A stretch of DNA of 64,000 nt from a virus. Location: the IMG/VR virus record IMGVR_UViG_3300008108_000039, positions 1-64,000 of that record; one strand, written 5' to 3'. Below, in pieces: positions 2,111 through 22,939 of the stretch (position 1 is the first letter of the stretch; each line of letters begins with the position of its first letter). The translations under genes were made by a program, and so were the position numbers. The notes beneath the pieces were generated by a model. It was not told the origin of the DNA and searched no databases. It worked only from the letters and a program-made list of their open reading frames with translations.

Positions 2111-2666
2111 AATACAATATTTTAGGTCTTTGTTCTTTCCAAATTTGGATGAGTTCTTTTGTAACACGTCTTACATTTTTATAAATATACTCACCATGAA
2201 TTGATGTTGAGTTGGTATTTAAAGTTAACCATTCGGCAAACTCAGCCGTATCACTATCTGAATTAGGATGTGTTTCTTGGGATTTGTTGTAGCCCTCTAT
2301 AATACCATCTACATGCCAAATTATAGAATAGTCTCTATCTTTATTATTCTTATCTTTATACCAATTTAAAGAAACATTAGCTATTTCACAAGCCGTTTCT
2401 CCAATAATATCAACCTCATCCACCACTTTAGGAATATCAATGCTTGGGTTGTTAGTTGCTATTACTTTTTTCTGTAGTAATAAATCTATATCATTTAGTG
2501 TATCAATTTGCTCTAGTCCTATTGTAGCATCTACATATATTTCTATTACAATGTCACCTACTTGAACTTTGTCATCACTCACATAATAAGCCCTTCCATC
2601 TACAACTACCTTCTCGCAGATGTGCTCTTCACCTGTTGTCTTGTTGATTAATTTGTACTTATTCAT
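2103..2666 (-). CDS. hypothetical phage protein
   Basis: 187-aa ORF. Confidence 0.75.
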   Translation of the reverse strand: MNKYKLINKTTGEEHICEKVVVDGRAYYVSDDKVQVGDIVIEIYVDATIGLEQIDTLNDIDLLLQKKVIATNNPSIDIPKVVDEVDIIGETACEIANVSLNWYKDKNNKDRDYSIIWHVDGIIEGYNKSQETHPNSDSDTAEFAEWLTLNTNSTSIHGEYIYKNVRRVTKELIQIWKEQRPKILYYE

Positions 2667-2676
2667 AATGTTTTAT

Positions 2677-3129
2677 CTATGTTAATGATGACTTCCGTAA
2701 AATGATTATTTTGTACCAACCATAACCGTTTGATGTTTCAACTCCATAAGGAAATACATCTTTATCATATTTAACCTCACATCTATCAAAAGGAACTCCA
2801 CTTTCATTTGCATTATTAACAAACCATTCTAAGAACTCATCATCAATAGCTTGTACACCATCATTGATTAAGTCTTGGTCTGTTGTTAGGATGATTATAT
2901 CTTGTTTAGAAGAATATTGAGCACCTCCCGAATTGTAAGGCTCATTTAATACTTTGTCTAAATACCATTGGTCAACACCTTCTTTAATTTCTTCTTCTGA
3001 TGTGATGTAGATGTTTACATTGTTCCAAAGTTGTGGGTTATTCATTGAAGAAAACATTAACTCTTTTGTAATTCTTCTTTGAACTAGCCTACTTGGTTTA
3101 TCCGTTGGTAATACGTGTATGTTTTTCAT
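2677..3129 (-). CDS. hypothetical phage protein (MKNIHVLPTDKPSRL family)
   Basis: 150-aa ORF. Confidence 0.75.
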   Translation of the reverse strand: MKNIHVLPTDKPSRLVQRRITKELMFSSMNNPQLWNNVNIYITSEEEIKEGVDQWYLDKVLNEPYNSGGAQYSSKQDIIILTTDQDLINDGVQAIDDEFLEWFVNNANESGVPFDRCEVKYDKDVFPYGVETSNGYGWYKIIILRKSSLT

Positions 3130-3142
3130 ATTTTGTTTTTAA

Positions 3143-3936
3143 ATAATTAGCACCCTCTTATCTTATTAACGTGCATTTCAGTTCTACACTGTAGTCCCTT
3201 TTAATAAGAGTAGGGTCACGTAGTTAACTGTGGGTCTTTCGGGGTTTCTGTTAGTTCCAAAGAACCTGCAATGAACCAAACCCTTAGTCTTATCATTGCT
3301 TTACAGCTTCAACCATTAACTACTTGCTGAGAACTTGTTCGTGTATACTTCCAGTATATCTCTATACATCTGGTACACGCCTATCATCTCTGATAGGTTT
3401 TTGAAACTGTAAGAGCAAGACCCTCTGTTACTGGACTAATTGTAACCGCAGGATTTATACTTGACCTATTATGTGGTATTTCCAAAGCCCACCACTCACA
3501 GTTTCAGGGATTTCATTAACCCTCGTTGATAACGACGCTCGGTATTTCTCCAACTACGTGTCTTACTATTACTCCACAAATCACGTGGTAGTTTCTGTGT
3601 CGCTAATTATCAACTACATCCAGATTATGTATTATGCTGGATGATTTTTAAGTTTAACCCTGTCACTCCAAGAATGTGAATACCCGTGATGCTCCTTAGG
3701 TTCATCTTTGGTAAGGCTTTCAAGTATCTGTCCCCAAACAACTCCATCTTGGTAGGGATTCTAATACTCACATTGTTTCTGTAACTCTCTTGAGCACGTT
3801 ACCCATGCAAAGGTTTTTATCCTTTATATTGGCTTGTTAATTCCTACCCCAAGTGTCCAGGCTTTTGAGTCATTTAAAAGTTAACAACATTAAACATGTC
3901 TTAACTTACTTATTTATTTGCTTTCAGCAGGGTTAA
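3143..3936 (-). ncRNA. large (~800 nt) multi-domain structured RNA candidate, unassigned
   Basis: no ORF, raised GC, long-range helices 3143-3151/3602-3610, 3217-3225/3552-3560, 3402-3413/3495-3506, 3654-3662/3928-3936; GNRA-capped hairpins on minus strand; boxA-like motif just upstream. Confidence 0.7.
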
Positions 3937-3940
3937 TTAT

Positions 3941-3951
3941 TTTCAAAGAAC
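3941..3951 (-). promoter_or_regulatory. boxA-like antitermination element
   Basis: GTTCTTTGAAA directly 5' of the structured RNA; related GATCTTTGA at 21341, 25201, 26676. Confidence 0.55.
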
Positions 3952-4122
3952 TTATTTCTTCTTGTACATTGGATTTCCTTTTACTGAAGGATATCCTTTA
4001 TATAATGGTTTTGATGGTTTTACACCGCGAGTAAAATATTTTTTATCAGTTGTAGGACAAGATTGTTTACTACATGACATTAAAACAGAAATAATTACTA
4101 ATAACATTAATACTTTTTTCAT
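3952..4122 (-). CDS. small lipoprotein (56 aa, not in ORF track)
   Basis: MKKVLMLLVIISVLMSC: basic N-terminus, hydrophobic core, lipobox Cys. Confidence 0.7.
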   Translation of the reverse strand: MKKVLMLLVIISVLMSCSKQSCPTTDKKYFTRGVKPSKPLYKGYPSVKGNPMYKKK

Positions 4123-4140
4123 AACCTTTTATTTGAAATA

Positions 4141-4162
4141 AATGTACAACTTTTATTTTGCC
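4141..4162 (-). promoter_or_regulatory. phage promoter motif GKCAAAAT-N-TAYATT
   Basis: GGCAAAATAAAAGTTGTACATT. Confidence 0.65.
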
Positions 4163-4164
4163 TT

Positions 4165-5292
4165 TTAATTACTTAAAGGTGCTTTAATTGCAGGGTGTGA
4201 TTGATAGTTTCCTAACTGTATATCTTCTTCTAATAGACATCTTATAAAATCATCATTAGATAAGGCTGAAATAAATACACTTTTACTTAATGGTCCTATT
4301 CCGCATTCACCGCTTTCTGTTTGCCAAAATTCAGTGTTAATATTTAATGATGGTAATTCATAAGGTGTTCTTGTAACCTGTTCTTTAGCTTGTTCAATGT
4401 GGTTATTGTAAAGGTGTACGTCACCTAGGTTGCCAATCAATTCATCAGGTACCATATTAACTACTTTAGCTATAATTTCTAATAGTAGTCCATAAGATGC
4501 TATGTTGAATGGTAATCCAAGGAATGTATCTACTGAACGTTGATTCCACATTAGAGAGATTGCTCGTTTAGGAACGCCGTATTCGTCAAAATGAAATTGT
4601 TTGAAGTTAATACCACTTATATGTAGTTGTAAATCTCTACCACATACTTTTTTGTAAATTTCAAATCTTTCATCGTGACTCAACTCTCTCGTATAAACTT
4701 GAAATCCATAATGACAAGGTGGTAACACCATTTGGTCCAACTCACCTACATTCCACGCATTAACCATTAAACGTCTTGAATCAGGATTTGTTTTGAGTTC
4801 GTTGATTAGGTTTGCGATTTGGTCAATTGGTTGTTGCGATGATTTAGGGTCCCCGATAGTTTTAATTGGTTTTTTCCAACTTCTCCACTGCTTCCCATAC
4901 ACGGGTCCGAGTGACCCCCACGTCTTAGCAAACTCATCATCTGTTTTTATTTTGTTGATGAATTCACTCTTTAACATACCTCCTTCATCTTCAGAACTTA
5001 TTATTTTATTTTTAATACAGTAATTTTTCCAAGCATCTCCATCCCAAATATGACAATCATTATCCACTAAGAATTTAATATTTGTATCTCCACGTAAAAA
5101 CCATAGTAGTTCAGTTACTATACCTTTAAAGTACATTTTTTTAGTGGTTAATAGTGGAAATCCTTCACTCATCCTATGACGGATTTGTCTACCAAATACT
5201 GATAGTGTACTACCATTTCGAGTTTCCTTAACAACTCCGTTGTCAAGTCTGTCTTGGAGGAGTGATTGGTATTGACGGTCTATATTATTCAT
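4165..5292 (-). CDS. thyA: thymidylate synthase
   Basis: FPLLTTKK, ELLWFLRG, LGPVYGKQWR, MVLPPCH, QRSVD, GLPFNIASY, GDVHLYNNH motifs. Confidence 0.97.
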   Translation of the reverse strand: MNNIDRQYQSLLQDRLDNGVVKETRNGSTLSVFGRQIRHRMSEGFPLLTTKKMYFKGIVTELLWFLRGDTNIKFLVDNDCHIWDGDAWKNYCIKNKIISSEDEGGMLKSEFINKIKTDDEFAKTWGSLGPVYGKQWRSWKKPIKTIGDPKSSQQPIDQIANLINELKTNPDSRRLMVNAWNVGELDQMVLPPCHYGFQVYTRELSHDERFEIYKKVCGRDLQLHISGINFKQFHFDEYGVPKRAISLMWNQRSVDTFLGLPFNIASYGLLLEIIAKVVNMVPDELIGNLGDVHLYNNHIEQAKEQVTRTPYELPSLNINTEFWQTESGECGIGPLSKSVFISALSNDDFIRCLLEEDIQLGNYQSHPAIKAPLSN

Positions 5293-5698: not shown

Positions 5699-5986
5699 TC
5701 ATAACCCCGACATGCCTGAAGAACTCTGAGTATTAACTGGTCTCCATTTGATGCCTGTTTCAGGTTCAACATAAAATCCTCCTTCTTCATCGAAGCCCGT
5801 TTCCCACTCACTAATTGGTTTTTTTCCGTTATCGTCAATCTCAAACCATTTTCCTTTTAATGAATATGCTGTATCTTTTACTTTTTCCCGTTCTTCGATG
5901 CAATGTAAACATTCTAACTCTTCTGATGAGTGTACACATACTACTCTTTCATGTAGAGGGTTCCATATCACATAAACTTTATCCAT
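5699..5986 (-). CDS. hypothetical protein
   Basis: 95-aa ORF. Confidence 0.65.
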   Translation of the reverse strand: MDKVYVIWNPLHERVVCVHSSEELECLHCIEEREKVKDTAYSLKGKWFEIDDNGKKPISEWETGFDEEGGFYVEPETGIKWRPVNTQSSSGMSGL

Positions 5987-6251
5987 AAACTTCTATTATT
6001 TTTACTGAGTCGTACATTAATGTAACAGTATCTTCATTTAGACCTAATGAAGGTCTACAATTTTTTAATAATACTAACTCACATATTCCTTTACATTCAA
6101 TATCTTCAACATAATCTGCTTTTGATAGATTATATGCTTTTTTCTGCCACTTATAGAAAAATTTTATATCCTCTTCATCAACAAGAGGTATGTCAAATCC
6201 ACAATTAAAAAATTTACCTTCAAACCATTTACCATTAATTTTTACTTTCAT
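5979..6251 (-). CDS. hypothetical protein
   Basis: 90-aa ORF. Confidence 0.65.
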   Translation of the reverse strand: MKVKINGKWFEGKFFNCGFDIPLVDEEDIKFFYKWQKKAYNLSKADYVEDIECKGICELVLLKNCRPSLGLNEDTVTLMYDSVKIIEVYG

Positions 6252-21397: not shown

Positions 21398-22939
21398 TTA
21401 TATTTCAATTGCTTCAATAGCTTTAATCAGTGCTTTTGGATCAATTTCTACTTTTTTAATCAGTTCATAAATGTCTGATGAATATCCGTAAATACCATAA
21501 ACTTTACTTCCTGGTTTAAACATTGTAGTTCCATATCCGCAAATATCTACTGAATATACATGCATATTTGCATATGCTGATTTTTCTATGTGATCTTTAC
21601 CTTGCATATCTGAAATTATAAACACACGATCATAGTTTTTTCCTATAGTTCTGAATATGCTTTCAAATGCTGTTCCATATCCTACTGATCCTTGTTGACC
21701 TAAGAATTGATTCTTAAGTGTATTTACACTATCAAGTGGGTTAAACTTAATTTGAGTAGTTCTATCAGCAAAATGATAAACATCGGCATTAATACCCTTA
21801 GCTAATGTAGCTGCAATTAATGCTGCTTTTGCAATAGCGGATTCTGAACCAGCATTTTTATTAGCTAATCTAATTCGTGAGGTCATTGAACCTGAACTAT
21901 CAAATATTACTGCTGTTTTTCCATGTGGAAATAATTCAGTTAAGTTTGGAATAGCTAACTCATAAGCTGTATTTAAAGCATTTATAAATGGTCTTGCTCC
22001 ACTTGCTCCAAATTCATCTAACATTATTTCTAATGCTAAATCAATTTGGTGAGGAAATACTAATGATTGCTTAATTAGAGCTTTATCAGTTAATAATTCA
22101 CAAGCACCTTTAATAACTTCGGATTTAGCTCCTGTTTTTAAGATGTTTCTTAAGTTACGTAGTAACGCTAAGTAACCAATCTTACGAGTTTCAATCAATT
22201 CAGCAAAGTTATCTTCTTTAGCTTCATTTAATACTGCTACAGCTTGTTCAGCAGTAATTTTTCCTGCTTTTACTTTAGCTGCTACTTCTTGACCTGCTTT
22301 AGTATTTTTATCTTCTACTGTGTTAAATTGCTTTAACTCACCTTTCATCAATTTAGCAAACACTGACTTCATCTTTTCAGAAGGTTTTGGGTGTACTAAA
22401 TTAATAATATCAACTAAAGATAAATCACGATTTTTAGCTTGATATTTTGCTAATTCATATTCATCAGCTGCTTCTAAAGCCGCTTTAAATCCTTTTTTGA
22501 TAGCGTTTGATAATTGTTTACCTGGGTTTCTAGCTTGATAGCATGCTGCTATTTCTAGCATATCATCTAAACGATAGATGACACCACCAGCATTTGCTTT
22601 TCTTTCTCTTTTAGAGAAGAATCTAGCACCTAAACTATCACCAGCTAATACTTTAGCTAATTCTACAGCACCAAAGTGTGTAACAGTTCTTTGACCCATA
22701 ACACTACGAGCATATACCATTGCTTTTGCAGCGAATACTTTATCAGTTTTAGCTACTTCAGCAATAACATTAGCAAAACGTTGTTCGCGTTCACCTAGTT
22801 TTTCATAATACTTATTATCCAAACCTGTAGCTAAAATTGCTACTAGTTCAGTTTTTGAATCATATTGATAACCATTTCCACCTTGGTGGTTTACAACTGT
22901 TTGTACAGTTGGTTTTGCTTTTGCATTAAAACGTGCCAT
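21398..22939 (-). CDS. rsr: Ro60/TROVE-domain RNA-binding protein with C-terminal vWA domain (Rsr-like)
   Basis: NHQGG, YELAKY, DIINLVHPKP, ALLRNLRNI, MIDAS DSSGSM, GYGT, ISDMQ. Confidence 0.92.
   Translation of the reverse strand: MARFNAKAKPTVQTVVNHQGGNGYQYDSKTELVAILATGLDNKYYEKLGEREQRFANVIAEVAKTDKVFAAKAMVYARSVMGQRTVTHFGAVELAKVLAGDSLGARFFSKRERKANAGGVIYRLDDMLEIAACYQARNPGKQLSNAIKKGFKAALEAADEYELAKYQAKNRDLSLVDIINLVHPKPSEKMKSVFAKLMKGELKQFNTVEDKNTKAGQEVAAKVKAGKITAEQAVAVLNEAKEDNFAELIETRKIGYLALLRNLRNILKTGAKSEVIKGACELLTDKALIKQSLVFPHQIDLALEIMLDEFGASGARPFINALNTAYELAIPNLTELFPHGKTAVIFDSSGSMTSRIRLANKNAGSESAIAKAALIAATLAKGINADVYHFADRTTQIKFNPLDSVNTLKNQFLGQQGSVGYGTAFESIFRTIGKNYDRVFIISDMQGKDHIEKSAYANMHVYSVDICGYGTTMFKPGSKVYGIYGYSSDIYELIKKVEIDPKALIKAIEAIEI

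Follow-up and report, generated by a model that had tools for sequence, protein, structure and literature searches.

The window analysed here is a 64,000-nt stretch (positions 1 to 64,000 of IMG/VR record IMGVR_UViG_3300008108_000039) of a 167-kb phage genome. From 3130 to 4164 it contains no ORF of at least 70 aa, and no other gap of this kind reaches 300 nt, apart from those at the tRNA island and the start of the window. The ORF-free part, 3130-3950, has a G+C content of 0.40 against 0.30 window-wide, as a preliminary description made from the letters of the sequence had noticed, and the repeats quoted in that description were all found at their coordinates. Compared with shuffled sequences, the minus strand folded with a z score of -3.5 for the whole gap and -4.4 for 3143-3651, versus -1.8 for the plus strand of the gap; the segment 3654-3936 on its own reached only -1.1 on the minus strand, no better than shuffles. 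The whole-gap score and the covarying helices described below bear out the earlier proposal that the minus strand encodes structured non-coding RNA.

The gap resembles no catalogued RNA. An Rfam scan of the region, the first check that the preliminary description had proposed, returned no match at the gathering score or at E<=10. The gap thus encodes no RNase P, tmRNA or group I/II intron, signatures of which that description had also failed to find, and no GOLLD or ROOL; gathering-score scans of 27 related loci gave no match at the RNA positions. Small ORFs of the gap had no PHROG match. By blastn against 50,697 phage records, neither the whole gap nor its upstream RNA (RNA-A) found a match; the 3' core of the downstream RNA (RNA-B) matched phage phi14:2 over 25 nt and, weakly, four Rhizobium phage records over 22 nt (E 0.2), and nothing else. 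Neither TAnnTTTG nor the ATATTTAT motif occurs on the minus strand of 3100-4300, and a search of 2600-4400 for intrinsic terminators found none. We consider it highly probable that the gap encodes two independent structured non-coding RNAs in tandem on the minus strand, RNA-A of a small phage family (family A) and RNA-B of a large, modular, phage-restricted family (family B), which would be jointly transcribed and trimmed and would act in trans. The suggestion of a new phage RNA class was thus borne out, with two new families in place of one. The domain boundary had been placed correctly, at about 3650; the idea that the two domains form one molecule is unlikely, because A and B each occur alone.

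Table 1. Features of the tandem RNA locus, in window coordinates.
Feature	Position	Strand	Remarks
GTTCTTTGAAA motif ("boxA-like" in the preliminary description)	3941..3951	-	After stop codon of 56-aa ORF, before RNA-A
RNA-A, complete family A member	3654..3936	-	Long form; ~115-nt insertion common to L246
RNA-A closing helix, 5' strand (TTAACCCTG)	3928..3936	-	Pairs with 3654-3662; covariation
RNA-A conserved central block (TTAGAATCC.TACCAAGA.GGAGTTGTTTG..GA.AGATAC)	3724..3764	-	Invariant A11 columns
RNA-A conserved 3' block (GTATTCACA..CTTGGAGTGACAGG and closing-helix 3' strand)	3654..3684	-	Holds TCAC/GTGA hairpin 3679-3663
RNA-B 5' extension	3524..3651	-	Common only to L118; hairpin 3643-3617 and helix P0
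RNA-B P1 hairpin, AGGG-TTAATGAAAT-CCCT	3506..3523	-	Matches family P1 by position and shape
RNA-B mid-module, insertion in helix P2	3403..3505	-	Closing helix GAAACTGTGAG/CTTACAGTTTC; hairpins GTGG..CCAC and GTTAC-AATTAGTCCA-GTAAC
RNA-B P3 hairpin, CCTATCA-GAGA-TGATAGG	3380..3397	-	GNRA-type loop; family-wide hairpin
RNA-B P4 and enclosed P5	3340..3379	-	P4 CGTGTA 3379-3374 with TACACG 3345-3340; P5 CCAG..CTGG 3373-3351
RNA-B 3' core	3145..3348	-	Covariance model R1
18-mer GTTCTCAGCAAGTAGTTA	3334-3317	-	Invariant
Helix Pa, GTAGTTAA/TTAACTAC	3323-3316 / 3227-3220	-	Family-wide; compensatory change in L265
Variable insert of 3' core	3315-3228	-	Homologue in L141
Helix Pb	3215-3204 / 3166-3153	-	RNA-B 3' core
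Tail TGCTAA	3152-3147	-	Conserved, single-stranded

RNA-A carries every block by which family A is recognised: the 5' sequence (T)TACC(C)TGCT.GAAGCAAAC, the central TTAGAATCC.TACCAAGA.GGAGTTGTTTG, the 3' ATTCACA..CTTGGAGTGACAGG and the terminal closing helix. An nhmmer profile built from 10 family A sequences found a single copy in the genome, at 3939-3650 (-) (E 6e-37, profile positions 3-215), and a full-length homologue with 70% identity lies at L246:1849-1547. RNAalifold placed 27 pairs in the family alignment, 8 of them with compensatory changes. The closing helix, 3936-3928/3662-3654, which the preliminary description had picked out, covaries in homologues: among 10 sequences, 3 to 5 have changes on both sides of its outer three pairs and still form them, and L246 and L142 also have compensatory changes. 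Inside it, TTGTTTGG (3741-3734) pairs with GCAAATAA (3921-3914), and GATAC (3728-3724) with GTAT in 3684-3680, the latter with double changes in up to 5 of 10 sequences. A pseudoknot that had been proposed for this domain is not supported, as its helix 3774-3763/3684-3673 clashes with two elements of the family, the TCAC/GTGA hairpin and the GATAC/GTAT helix that covaries. The 3' block occurs as an exact pattern in 12 IMG/VR stretches, and its columns are invariant in the A11 alignment.

With about 15 members, family A is rarer than family B. Some members lie inside tRNA arrays (L443, L377, L442 and L345 are flanked by tRNA genes). The GTTCTTTGAAA motif ahead of RNA-A occurs once in the window, starting at 3951 directly past the 56-aa ORF's stop codon; T/A-rich motifs loosely like it stand ahead of two long-form relatives, L246 and L142, and short-form relatives have a different A/T-rich sequence at this position. 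The putative boxA reading of the motif rests on resemblance and is unsupported.

RNA-B consists of a core at 3523-3143 (-) and a 5' extension, specific to its lineage, that reaches about 3651, the position at which homology with its closest relative, L118, starts. The covariance model R1, which describes the 3' core only, scored 94.9 bits (E 2e-23) over its full length at 3145-3348 (-), its only strong match in the genome. All blocks of the core are exact, namely the 18-mer GTTCTCAGCAAGTAGTTA, Pa, the block AACTACGTGACCC, Pb and the tail GGGTGCTAA, and the elements of the family B 5' half stand in the same order at 3523-3340: P1, P2 with its variable insert, P3, and P4 around P5, the loop of which pairs with TCTCAG.

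Comparison with relatives supports many of the helices. In the 5' extension, helix P0 (GTTGATAA, 3614-3607, with TTATCAAC, 3532-3525) has 8/8 positions paired in the window and in L118, four of them as G.U in L118, and the hairpin stem CATCCAG/CTGGATG becomes CATACAG/CTGTATG there (read by eye). The majority form of P1 across the family is AGGT-TAAACATTGAAT-ACCT; its stem covaries (AGGT/ACCT, GTCG/CGAC, ACTCA/TGAGT and others), and AGG/CCT is retained in L118. Homologues of the mid-module were found in L118, L263, L265 and L268, and in the alignment of the five sequences RNAalifold placed 31 pairs, 17 with compensatory double changes. P3, already recognised as a tetraloop hairpin in the preliminary description, corresponds to CTATCAGTAATGGTAG in most members and to CTATCAGAGATGGTAG in L091 and L131. 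P4 is represented by at least 9 compensatory sequence variants over family B, and the P5 stem also covaries. The helix TGAAACTGTGAG/CTTACAGTTTCA, another of the earlier predictions, covaries in homologues, and GCAATGA/TCATTGC reappears as ATAATGA/TCATTAT in L141. Compensatory changes, looked for in RNAalifold and family alignments of the homologues, are therefore present in both families.

A second GAGA hairpin that had been predicted, GTATA-GAGA-TATAC, is instead the conserved P5 loop, pseudoknotted with the TCTC of the invariant 18-mer. The pseudoknot that homologues support lies in RNA-B and not in RNA-A, where it had been drawn. The window, whose P5 loop is a minority form common to L040, L118, L086 and L119, allows only 4 pairs (GAGA, 3362-3359); relatives have compensatory versions, TTGAAA with TTTCAG in L289 and TCGAGA with TCTCGG in L285. 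Two long-range helices that had been proposed for RNA-B are not conserved. Its closing helix, 3610-3602/3151-3143, keeps 4/9 pairs in L118, and the nested helix CACGTAGTT/AACTACGTG keeps 3/9 and competes with the family-wide Pa. We considered an AGCA/TGCT closing helix for a 3' three-way junction and dropped it, because the tail variants GGGTACTAA and GGGTTCTAA and the 18-mer variants TCTCAAC and TCTAAGT are uncompensated. Several pairs of the core are beyond covariation testing because the core is so invariant.

Family B is absent from Rfam, and well over 100 contigs of IMG/VR carry its near-invariant, pseudoknotted 3' core. An exact copy of the 18-mer is present in 105 IMG/VR stretches; the 18-mer of block 2 gave 44 further matches in additional loci, nearly all of which have a one- or two-base variant of the first 18-mer. 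The family is almost entirely restricted to viruses. In 185,579 prokaryote genomes we found 7 exact 18-mer matches; among these, R1 matched strongly only in contigs of two 'Clostridium sp.' MAGs, which we suspect to be mis-binned phage; a Muribaculaceae MAG had one weak partial R1 match (20.8 bits). Exact 18-mers in Jejuia, Mongoliibacter and Baaleninema genomes and in L104, L134 and L144 were chance or coding matches. Pattern scans with AAGAGAGTTACAGAAA and AAGATGGAGTTGTTTG likewise gave mostly chance or coding matches, those of AAGATGGAGTTGTTTG reflecting a KMELFEDLE-type protein motif.

Family B is associated with tRNA and tmRNA genes. Such a gene lies within <1 kb of the RNA in 28/97 instances, on the same strand every time, versus 11% of locus bases that close. 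Phage tmRNA genes are often immediately 3' of the RNA on its own strand, beginning 5-150 nt past the tail in 13/90 instances. In the present phage, the two RNAs are 16 kb away from the tRNA island, and tmRNA (ARAGORN, Rfam), SmpB and RNase R are all absent from the genome; a link to ribosome rescue therefore cannot be obligatory. The phage also encodes a TROVE/Ro60-like protein (21398-22939). It has no homologue in any RNA locus compared, so no local Ro60 link was found.

One member of family B has a known transcript. In phi14:2, a crAss-like phage of Cellulophaga, the g004-g005 junction is reported to produce a long non-coding RNA that is early, persistent and rightward and outnumbers most mRNAs; the report describes the transcript, without family, structure or function (Drobysheva et al., bioRxiv 10.1101/2020.03.07.982082). 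R1 identifies a family B member there (110 bits, L187:2416-2594), with the exact 18-mer, block 2 and tail, on the transcribed strand. It occupies about 2915-3360 (+) of KC821624, between g004 (ends 2904) and g006 (starts 4602) of the re-annotated RefSeq record. The phi14:2 RNA has the majority 5' architecture, with P1 loop TAAACATTGAA and P5 loop TTGAGAA, whereas the RNA-B of the window has the minority P5 loop GTATAGAGATAT, the mid-module insertion and the 5' extension. The phi14:2 RNA is the only member with expression data, and we infer the transcription, strand and ends of both RNAs in the present phage from relatives. The second abundant non-coding RNA of phi14:2 is probably its tmRNA, because that region has a tmRNA-like T-arm and acceptor at its end; RNA-A and RNA-B, unlike tmRNA, have neither a tRNA-like acceptor end nor a tag reading frame.

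Among known classes, the closest in character are GOLLD and ROOL. Like families A and B, GOLLD (RF02032) is large, ornate and phage-borne, has variable peripheral domains and lies in tRNA arrays on the same strand. However, the GOLLD model (gathering score 150 bits) had no match in the window at the gathering score or at E<=10, whereas it scored 250 bits in the positive control, L105, at a place other than that of the family B RNA. L105 carries a true GOLLD and a family B RNA as separate genes ~1.5 kb apart, by the same array of 18 tRNA genes. RNA-B, of about 290-510 nt, is shorter than GOLLD and matches it in neither sequence nor structure. ROOL (RF03087), found in phages and bacteria as a large structured RNA, is also often near tRNA genes; according to a cryo-EM report (PMC12286853), it self-assembles. 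The ROOL model (gathering score 99.1 bits) had no cmscan match in the window at E<=10; a genome-wide search also gave none, a weak test, as the control genomes gave none either. The taxonomic range of ROOL is different as well.

The two RNAs could still be parts of one GOLLD-like molecule of ~800 nt with two domains. Three independent loci (the window, L142 and, weakly, L265) have A immediately ahead of B. The A closing helix and the B 5' extension are about 3 nt apart, and neither a terminator nor a recognisable promoter was found between the two RNAs. However, A occurs without B in L246, L345, L377, L383 and L442-L447, and B without A in about 100 loci, including L118. A is closed on itself by its covarying terminal helix, and conserved pairing between A and B was not seen. 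We regard a single molecule as unlikely.

Somewhat less likely again is a cis-acting role for RNA-B, as a leader or processing element that governs or aids the expression or maturation of what lies downstream: tmRNA or tRNA in relatives, and a 150-aa ORF here. The RNA-B tail ends 13 nt ahead of the start codon of this ORF, at 3129; the same ORF family follows the RNA in both the window and L118 and occurs in the same loci in L040, L048, L065, L031 and L059. The frequent tmRNA genes downstream of relatives would suit this role too. Yet the downstream neighbours of family B are mixed (tmRNA, tRNAs, unrelated ORFs and convergent genes), and the RNA core is present in only 5/80 loci collected by the 150-aa ORF, which had no tblastn match in cultured phages. 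The phi14:2 RNA, unlike the adjacent early mRNAs, accumulates and persists, as a stable product would and a leader would not.

We find it very improbable that the sequences are functionless remnants of a mobile element, that is, an ORF-less group I/II intron or sequence associated with a homing endonuclease. An HNH-like ORF does lie directly upstream of some short family B members (L040, L121, L167, L177), modules are shuffled among members, and introns, too, typically have GNRA loops and pseudoknots. Against this, no Rfam intron matched at E<=10, and the flanking genes are whole and unsplit, the 150-aa ORF aligning from residue 1 in relatives. In the shortest member, L182, only about 15 nt lie between the Pa strands and no P3'/P8-type arrangement fits; a reading of the 18-mer as a group I 'R' element was dropped because the short members lack this room. 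The 18-mer and 3' tail are near-invariant over about 140 otherwise divergent contigs, which points to selection on the RNA itself. That the gap holds decayed protein-coding genes with structure by chance is barely credible: the fold of RNA-A alone is no better than shuffles, but there is no conserved frame, the small ORFs lack PHROG matches, many helices have compensatory changes, and the short conserved blocks are split by length-variable hairpins in a manner that is not codon-like.

Two trans-acting RNAs thus remain the preferred reading. RNA-A is closed by its covarying terminal helix, with the conserved blocks held within. In RNA-B, the 5' half comprises P1, P2, which takes interchangeable insertions, P3, and P4 around P5; next comes the almost invariant 3' core, in which the P5 loop and the 18-mer form the pseudoknot, with Pa, Pb and the single-stranded tail after it. 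Both may be cut from a transcript that also spans neighbouring genes; in relatives, trimming could be carried out by tRNA-processing nucleases, which we propose because the RNAs abut tRNA or tmRNA genes by a few nucleotides. Our best guess is that both are stable, folded RNAs that act in trans and have a link to the tRNA/tmRNA module of the phage. In RNA-B, the invariant core would do the work, as an active site or as a place where a conserved factor docks, this factor being of host or phage origin and part of the machinery for translation, tRNA or ribosome rescue. The variable insertions would serve as structural decoration and might aid self-assembly as in GOLLD and ROOL.

Large, elaborately folded RNAs without known function are rare, and each class that has been solved, from RNase P, tmRNA and group I/II introns to the recent GOLLD, ROOL and OLE assemblies, has brought new biochemistry to light. 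Family B offers 18 nt conserved letter for letter in over 100 diverged phage contigs, a pseudoknot backed by covariation, swappable modules and, in phi14:2 on Cellulophaga baltica, a cultured and genetically approachable member that is among the most abundant phage transcripts; the role of the phage tRNA-island RNAs is therefore directly testable. The window adds a minority family B architecture and, with A, a second family, which is found repeatedly just ahead of family B. As a tentative proposal, which we put forward as a possibility rather than an expectation, families A and B may be further tRNA-island RNA classes beside GOLLD and ROOL, with the family B core acting on host translation or ribosome rescue, for example with or instead of tmRNA/SmpB/RNase R, or as an RNA-only assembly. 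If this is true, crAss-like and other Bacteroidota phages would own an RNA-based takeover device that is made from the first minutes of infection.

The gap at 3130-4164 holds two genuine and separable genes for structured non-coding RNAs, RNA-A (3936-3654) and RNA-B (~3651/3523-3143), both on the minus strand and assigned to two unnamed families, A and B. The record is a 167,479 bp phage, ~99% complete according to IMG/VR, and the genes flanking the gap are all on the minus strand. Devoid of ORFs of at least 70 aa, this is the sole such gap of at least 300 nt in the window once the tRNA island and the initial 408 bases are set aside. Its G+C content at 3150-3750 is 0.40 versus 0.30 overall; Rfam 15 gave nothing at gathering score and nothing at E≤10, and short ORFs within the gap had no match in PHROG. 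Every repeat reported in the preliminary description of the gap was found at its position.

Residues 7-374 of the 375-aa thymidylate synthase ORF cover the entire 266-position Pfam model, so its ~100 additional residues should represent one or more insertions. The 56-aa ORF, without a Pfam or PHROG match, has an N-terminus (MKKVLMLLVIISVLMSC..) that resembles a lipobox-containing lipoprotein signal peptide. The 150-aa ORF has more than 300 relatives in IMG/VR, belongs to no Pfam or PHROG family, and was not matched by tblastn in any of 50,697 cultured-phage records.

Features in and around the gap, with fold z-scores relative to shuffles and the majority architecture of family B
Feature	Position	Strand	Window form or value	Majority architecture of family B
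Thymidylate synthase	4165-5292	-		
56-aa ORF	3952-4122	-	directly upstream of RNA-A	
150-aa ORF	2677-3129	-	after RNA-B	
P1	3523-3506	-	AGGG-TTAATGAAAT-CCCT	hairpin, conserved loop TAAACATTGAA
P2	3505-3495 with 3413-3403	-	GAAACTGTGAG/CTTACAGTTTC	helix closing an insertion of variable length
P3	3397-3380	-	CCTATCA-GAGA-TGATAGG	hairpin, GNRA-type loop
P4	3379-3374 with 3345-3340	-	CGTGTA/TACACG	helix around P5
P5	3373-3351	-	CCAG..CTGG	hairpin, loop CTTGAGAAAG, then variable hairpin
3' core	3348-3145	-		AATGAG + 18-mer; Pa (GTAGTTAA/TTAACTAC) around variable insert; GTGA; Pb around variable hairpin; tail TGCTAA
Fold z-score	3130-3950	-	-3.5	
Fold z-score	3130-3950	+	-1.8	
Fold z-score	3143-3651	-	-4.4	
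Fold z-score	3654-3936	-	-1.1	

One rival is a single 800-nt RNA, and family A does lie directly upstream of family B in the window, in the homologous locus L142 (L-numbers denote fetched loci) and, weakly, in L265. Homology between L118 and the window ends at 3651, and L246 carries a full-length homologue of 3949-3653 without any RNA-B; judged from these alignments, RNA-A is a self-contained RNA, distinct from RNA-B. Pattern and profile searches identified further members in L383, L377, L345 with identical copies, L442-L447 and L468, together with a divergent one in L142 and a weak one in L265, for ~15 in IMG/VR. They share a 5' motif, TACC(C)TGCT.GAAGCAAAC, a central motif, TTAGAATCC.TACCAAGA.GGAGTTGTTTG..GA.AGATAC, and a 3' motif, ATTCACA..CTTGGAGTGACAGG(G)TA. 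The closing helix previously proposed for domain A (TTAACCCTG/CAGGGTTAA) proved to be the terminal helix of the family, lengthened by covarying pairs, with both sides changed in up to 5 of 10 sequences. GATAC/GTAT also covaries, and two further pairings, GCAAACAA/TTGTTTGT and TCAC/GTGA, are conserved. The proposed helix 3774-3763/3684-3673 is incompatible with this set, leaving the domain-A pseudoknot unsupported; the second helix of that pseudoknot, 3848-3839/3760-3751, falls partly within an insertion shared with L246 alone and is poorly retained there.

Family B emerged from loci fetched via the neighboring 150-aa ORF, a few of which had blocks matching the minus-strand 3' part. The 18-mer GTTCTCAGCAAGTAGTTA (window 3334-3317), expected by chance once per 4^18 (~6.9e10) positions, occurs exactly in 105 IMG/VR stretches, nearly all of which contain ..TTAACTACGTGACCCTACTCTTAT.. 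and ..AAGAGGGTGCTAA ~150 nt beyond it. Three of the 105 (L104, L134, L144) were rejected as coding false positives. A scan for the second block turned up 44 matches in loci not previously fetched; almost all carry 18-mer variants of 1-2 bases. A covariance model of the 3' core, R1, scored 94.9 bits on the window (3145-3348, minus strand), with no other strong match in the phage genome. Among one genome for each of 185,579 prokaryote species, the 18-mer was found seven times, and strong R1 matches were confined to contigs of two 'Clostridium sp.' MAGs: one 100-kb contig (NZ_JBNMNU010000001.1, 100,089 bp) with separately scoring copies L272 and L276, and a further contig, L277. From their size and content, we suspect that these are mis-binned crAss-like phage genomes. 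A Muribaculaceae MAG gave one partial, weak match (20.8 bits). On this evidence, family B is essentially virus-restricted.

Several helices of family B are supported by compensatory changes. P4 occurs in no fewer than nine forms that compensate one another, among them TGTGTTGT/ACAACACA, ACGTGAGT/ACTCACGT, GTCATTG/CAATGAC, CGCATT/GATGCG and AATGTGG/CCACATT, and variants of the P5 stem include TCC/GGA, TGC/GCA, AGC/GCT, AAC/GTT and TATC/GATA. Complementarity between TTGAGA in the P5 loop and TCTCAG in the 18-mer gives a pseudoknot backed by two compensatory cases, L289 (TTGAAA with TTTCAG) and L285 (TCGAGA with TCTCGG). Pa has a compensatory change in L265 (ATAATGA/TCATTGT). Pairing in the core helices reaches 89% across the seed alignment of R1 and falls to 40-53% with the partner slid out of register; a core this constant leaves little room for covariation. 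An AGCA/TGCT helix closing the 3' junction was unsupported. The same Pa insert is found with differing 5' halves and differing Pb hairpins, which argues for module shuffling by recombination. Many Pa inserts (e.g., L065, L090, L151, L154, L160) contain T-arm-like hairpins (GTGGTTCAAATCCAC, CATGGTTTGAACCCATG).

RNA-B of the window has a minority 5' form, common to L118, L040, L086 and L119. Its P2 encloses an insertion of ~80 nt, also present in L118, L263, L265 and L268; P2 and insertion make up an ~100-nt mid-module (3505-3403) whose consensus fold has 31 pairs, with double changes in 17. The mid-module (GGGCTTTGGAAATACC..AATTAGTCC..GGGTCTTGC, ~100 nt) also occurs without an adjoining family-B core, at L263:11108-11230 (minus) and L268:5166-5284 (plus), and may be an independent RNA motif. 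The window's P5 loop, ATGTATAGAGATATA, extends the minority motif TGTATGAGATAT by one base, and the pseudoknot is reduced to GAGA/TCTC. L141 contains a homologue of the window's 88-nt Pa insert in which ATAATGA/TCATTAT replaces GCAATGA/TCATTGC. Upstream of P1, a 5' extension of ~125 nt (3651-3524), common to L118 only, contains a hairpin (3643-3617) and a helix, GTTGATAA/TTATCAAC, that pairs 8/8 in L118. The long-range helices once drawn for domain B retain just 4/9 and 3/9 pairs in L118, and the helix nested within them competes with the family-wide Pa.

Family B is associated with genes for tRNA or tmRNA: in 28 of 97 instances one is no more than 1 kb away, on the same strand in all, compared with 11% of locus bases that near. 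A tmRNA gene starts 5-150 nt past the tail in 13 of 90 instances (≤8 nt in five), and in L128 P1 begins 2 nt past a tRNA. In L105, one array of 18 tRNA genes has beside it two distinct RNA genes, a true GOLLD (250 bits) and a family-B member; the two (3961-4386 and 5878-6075, both minus) are ~1.5 kb apart on the same strand. Family A lies between tRNAs in L443, L377 and L442, and a tRNA directly follows it in L345; in L383 it appears by eye to begin 2 nt past a tRNA-like 3' end, where ARAGORN calls no tRNA. In the window phage, 16 kb separate the two RNAs from the tRNA island of 24 genes, and tmRNA, SmpB and RNase R were not found in the genome.

One member, in the cultured Cellulophaga phage phi14:2 (Crassvirales; L187), is strongly, early and persistently transcribed. 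Its RNA lies at KC821624 ~2915-3360 (plus; R1 110 bits); the June 2020 re-annotation of the RefSeq record puts the end of g004 at 2904 and the start of g006 at 4602. Transcripts of two junctions, g004-g005 and g005-g006, are reported to run rightward, to exceed those of most genes, and to be present from the earliest time point without declining, with no function assigned by the authors (Drobysheva et al., bioRxiv 10.1101/2020.03.07.982082). The position of the family-B RNA therefore places it in the first junction. The second (L187:3320-3850, KC821624 ~4090-4620) ends in GGGGGTTCGAATCCCCCCGACTCCA, a tmRNA-like T-arm and acceptor, and this second abundant 'long non-coding RNA' region looks like a tmRNA. 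A similar sequence follows the family-B RNAs of L175, L094, L115, L065 and L146.

The window contained no Bacteroidota-type promoter motif on the minus strand at 3100-4300 and no intrinsic terminator in 2600-4400, so the simplest reading is that both RNAs would be transcribed on the minus strand jointly with the adjoining genes. Where the RNAs abut tRNA or tmRNA genes, maturation would proceed via tRNA-processing nucleases. A cis leader is a less likely rival. For an intron or mobile remnant, the shuffled modules speak in favor and the nearly constant core against. A decayed gene would have to be reconciled with covarying helices in both RNAs. In L040 (6500-7100), L121, L167 and L177, short family-B RNAs that apparently begin at CTAAACCCTGATAGAAAC are closely preceded by the end of an HNH-endonuclease-like ORF (..NHKDSNRENN.LDNLEWVT..); this ORF may be a free-standing homing endonuclease with a conserved RNA gene as neighbor or target.

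We favor, with low confidence, a stable RNA whose folded core would act in trans: the invariant pseudoknotted core would bind or act on a conserved translation, tRNA or ribosome-rescue component, with peripheral modules as scaffold. Self-assembly like that of GOLLD and ROOL is a live alternative form of this idea. The core sequences were found in no paper of the searchable literature, and a large viral structured-RNA catalogue has motif lengths of only 29-151 nt. Families A and B are absent from Rfam and belong to neither GOLLD nor ROOL, but they are of the same kind as these large ornate phage RNAs near tRNA genes, and the window contributes a minority architecture of family B.
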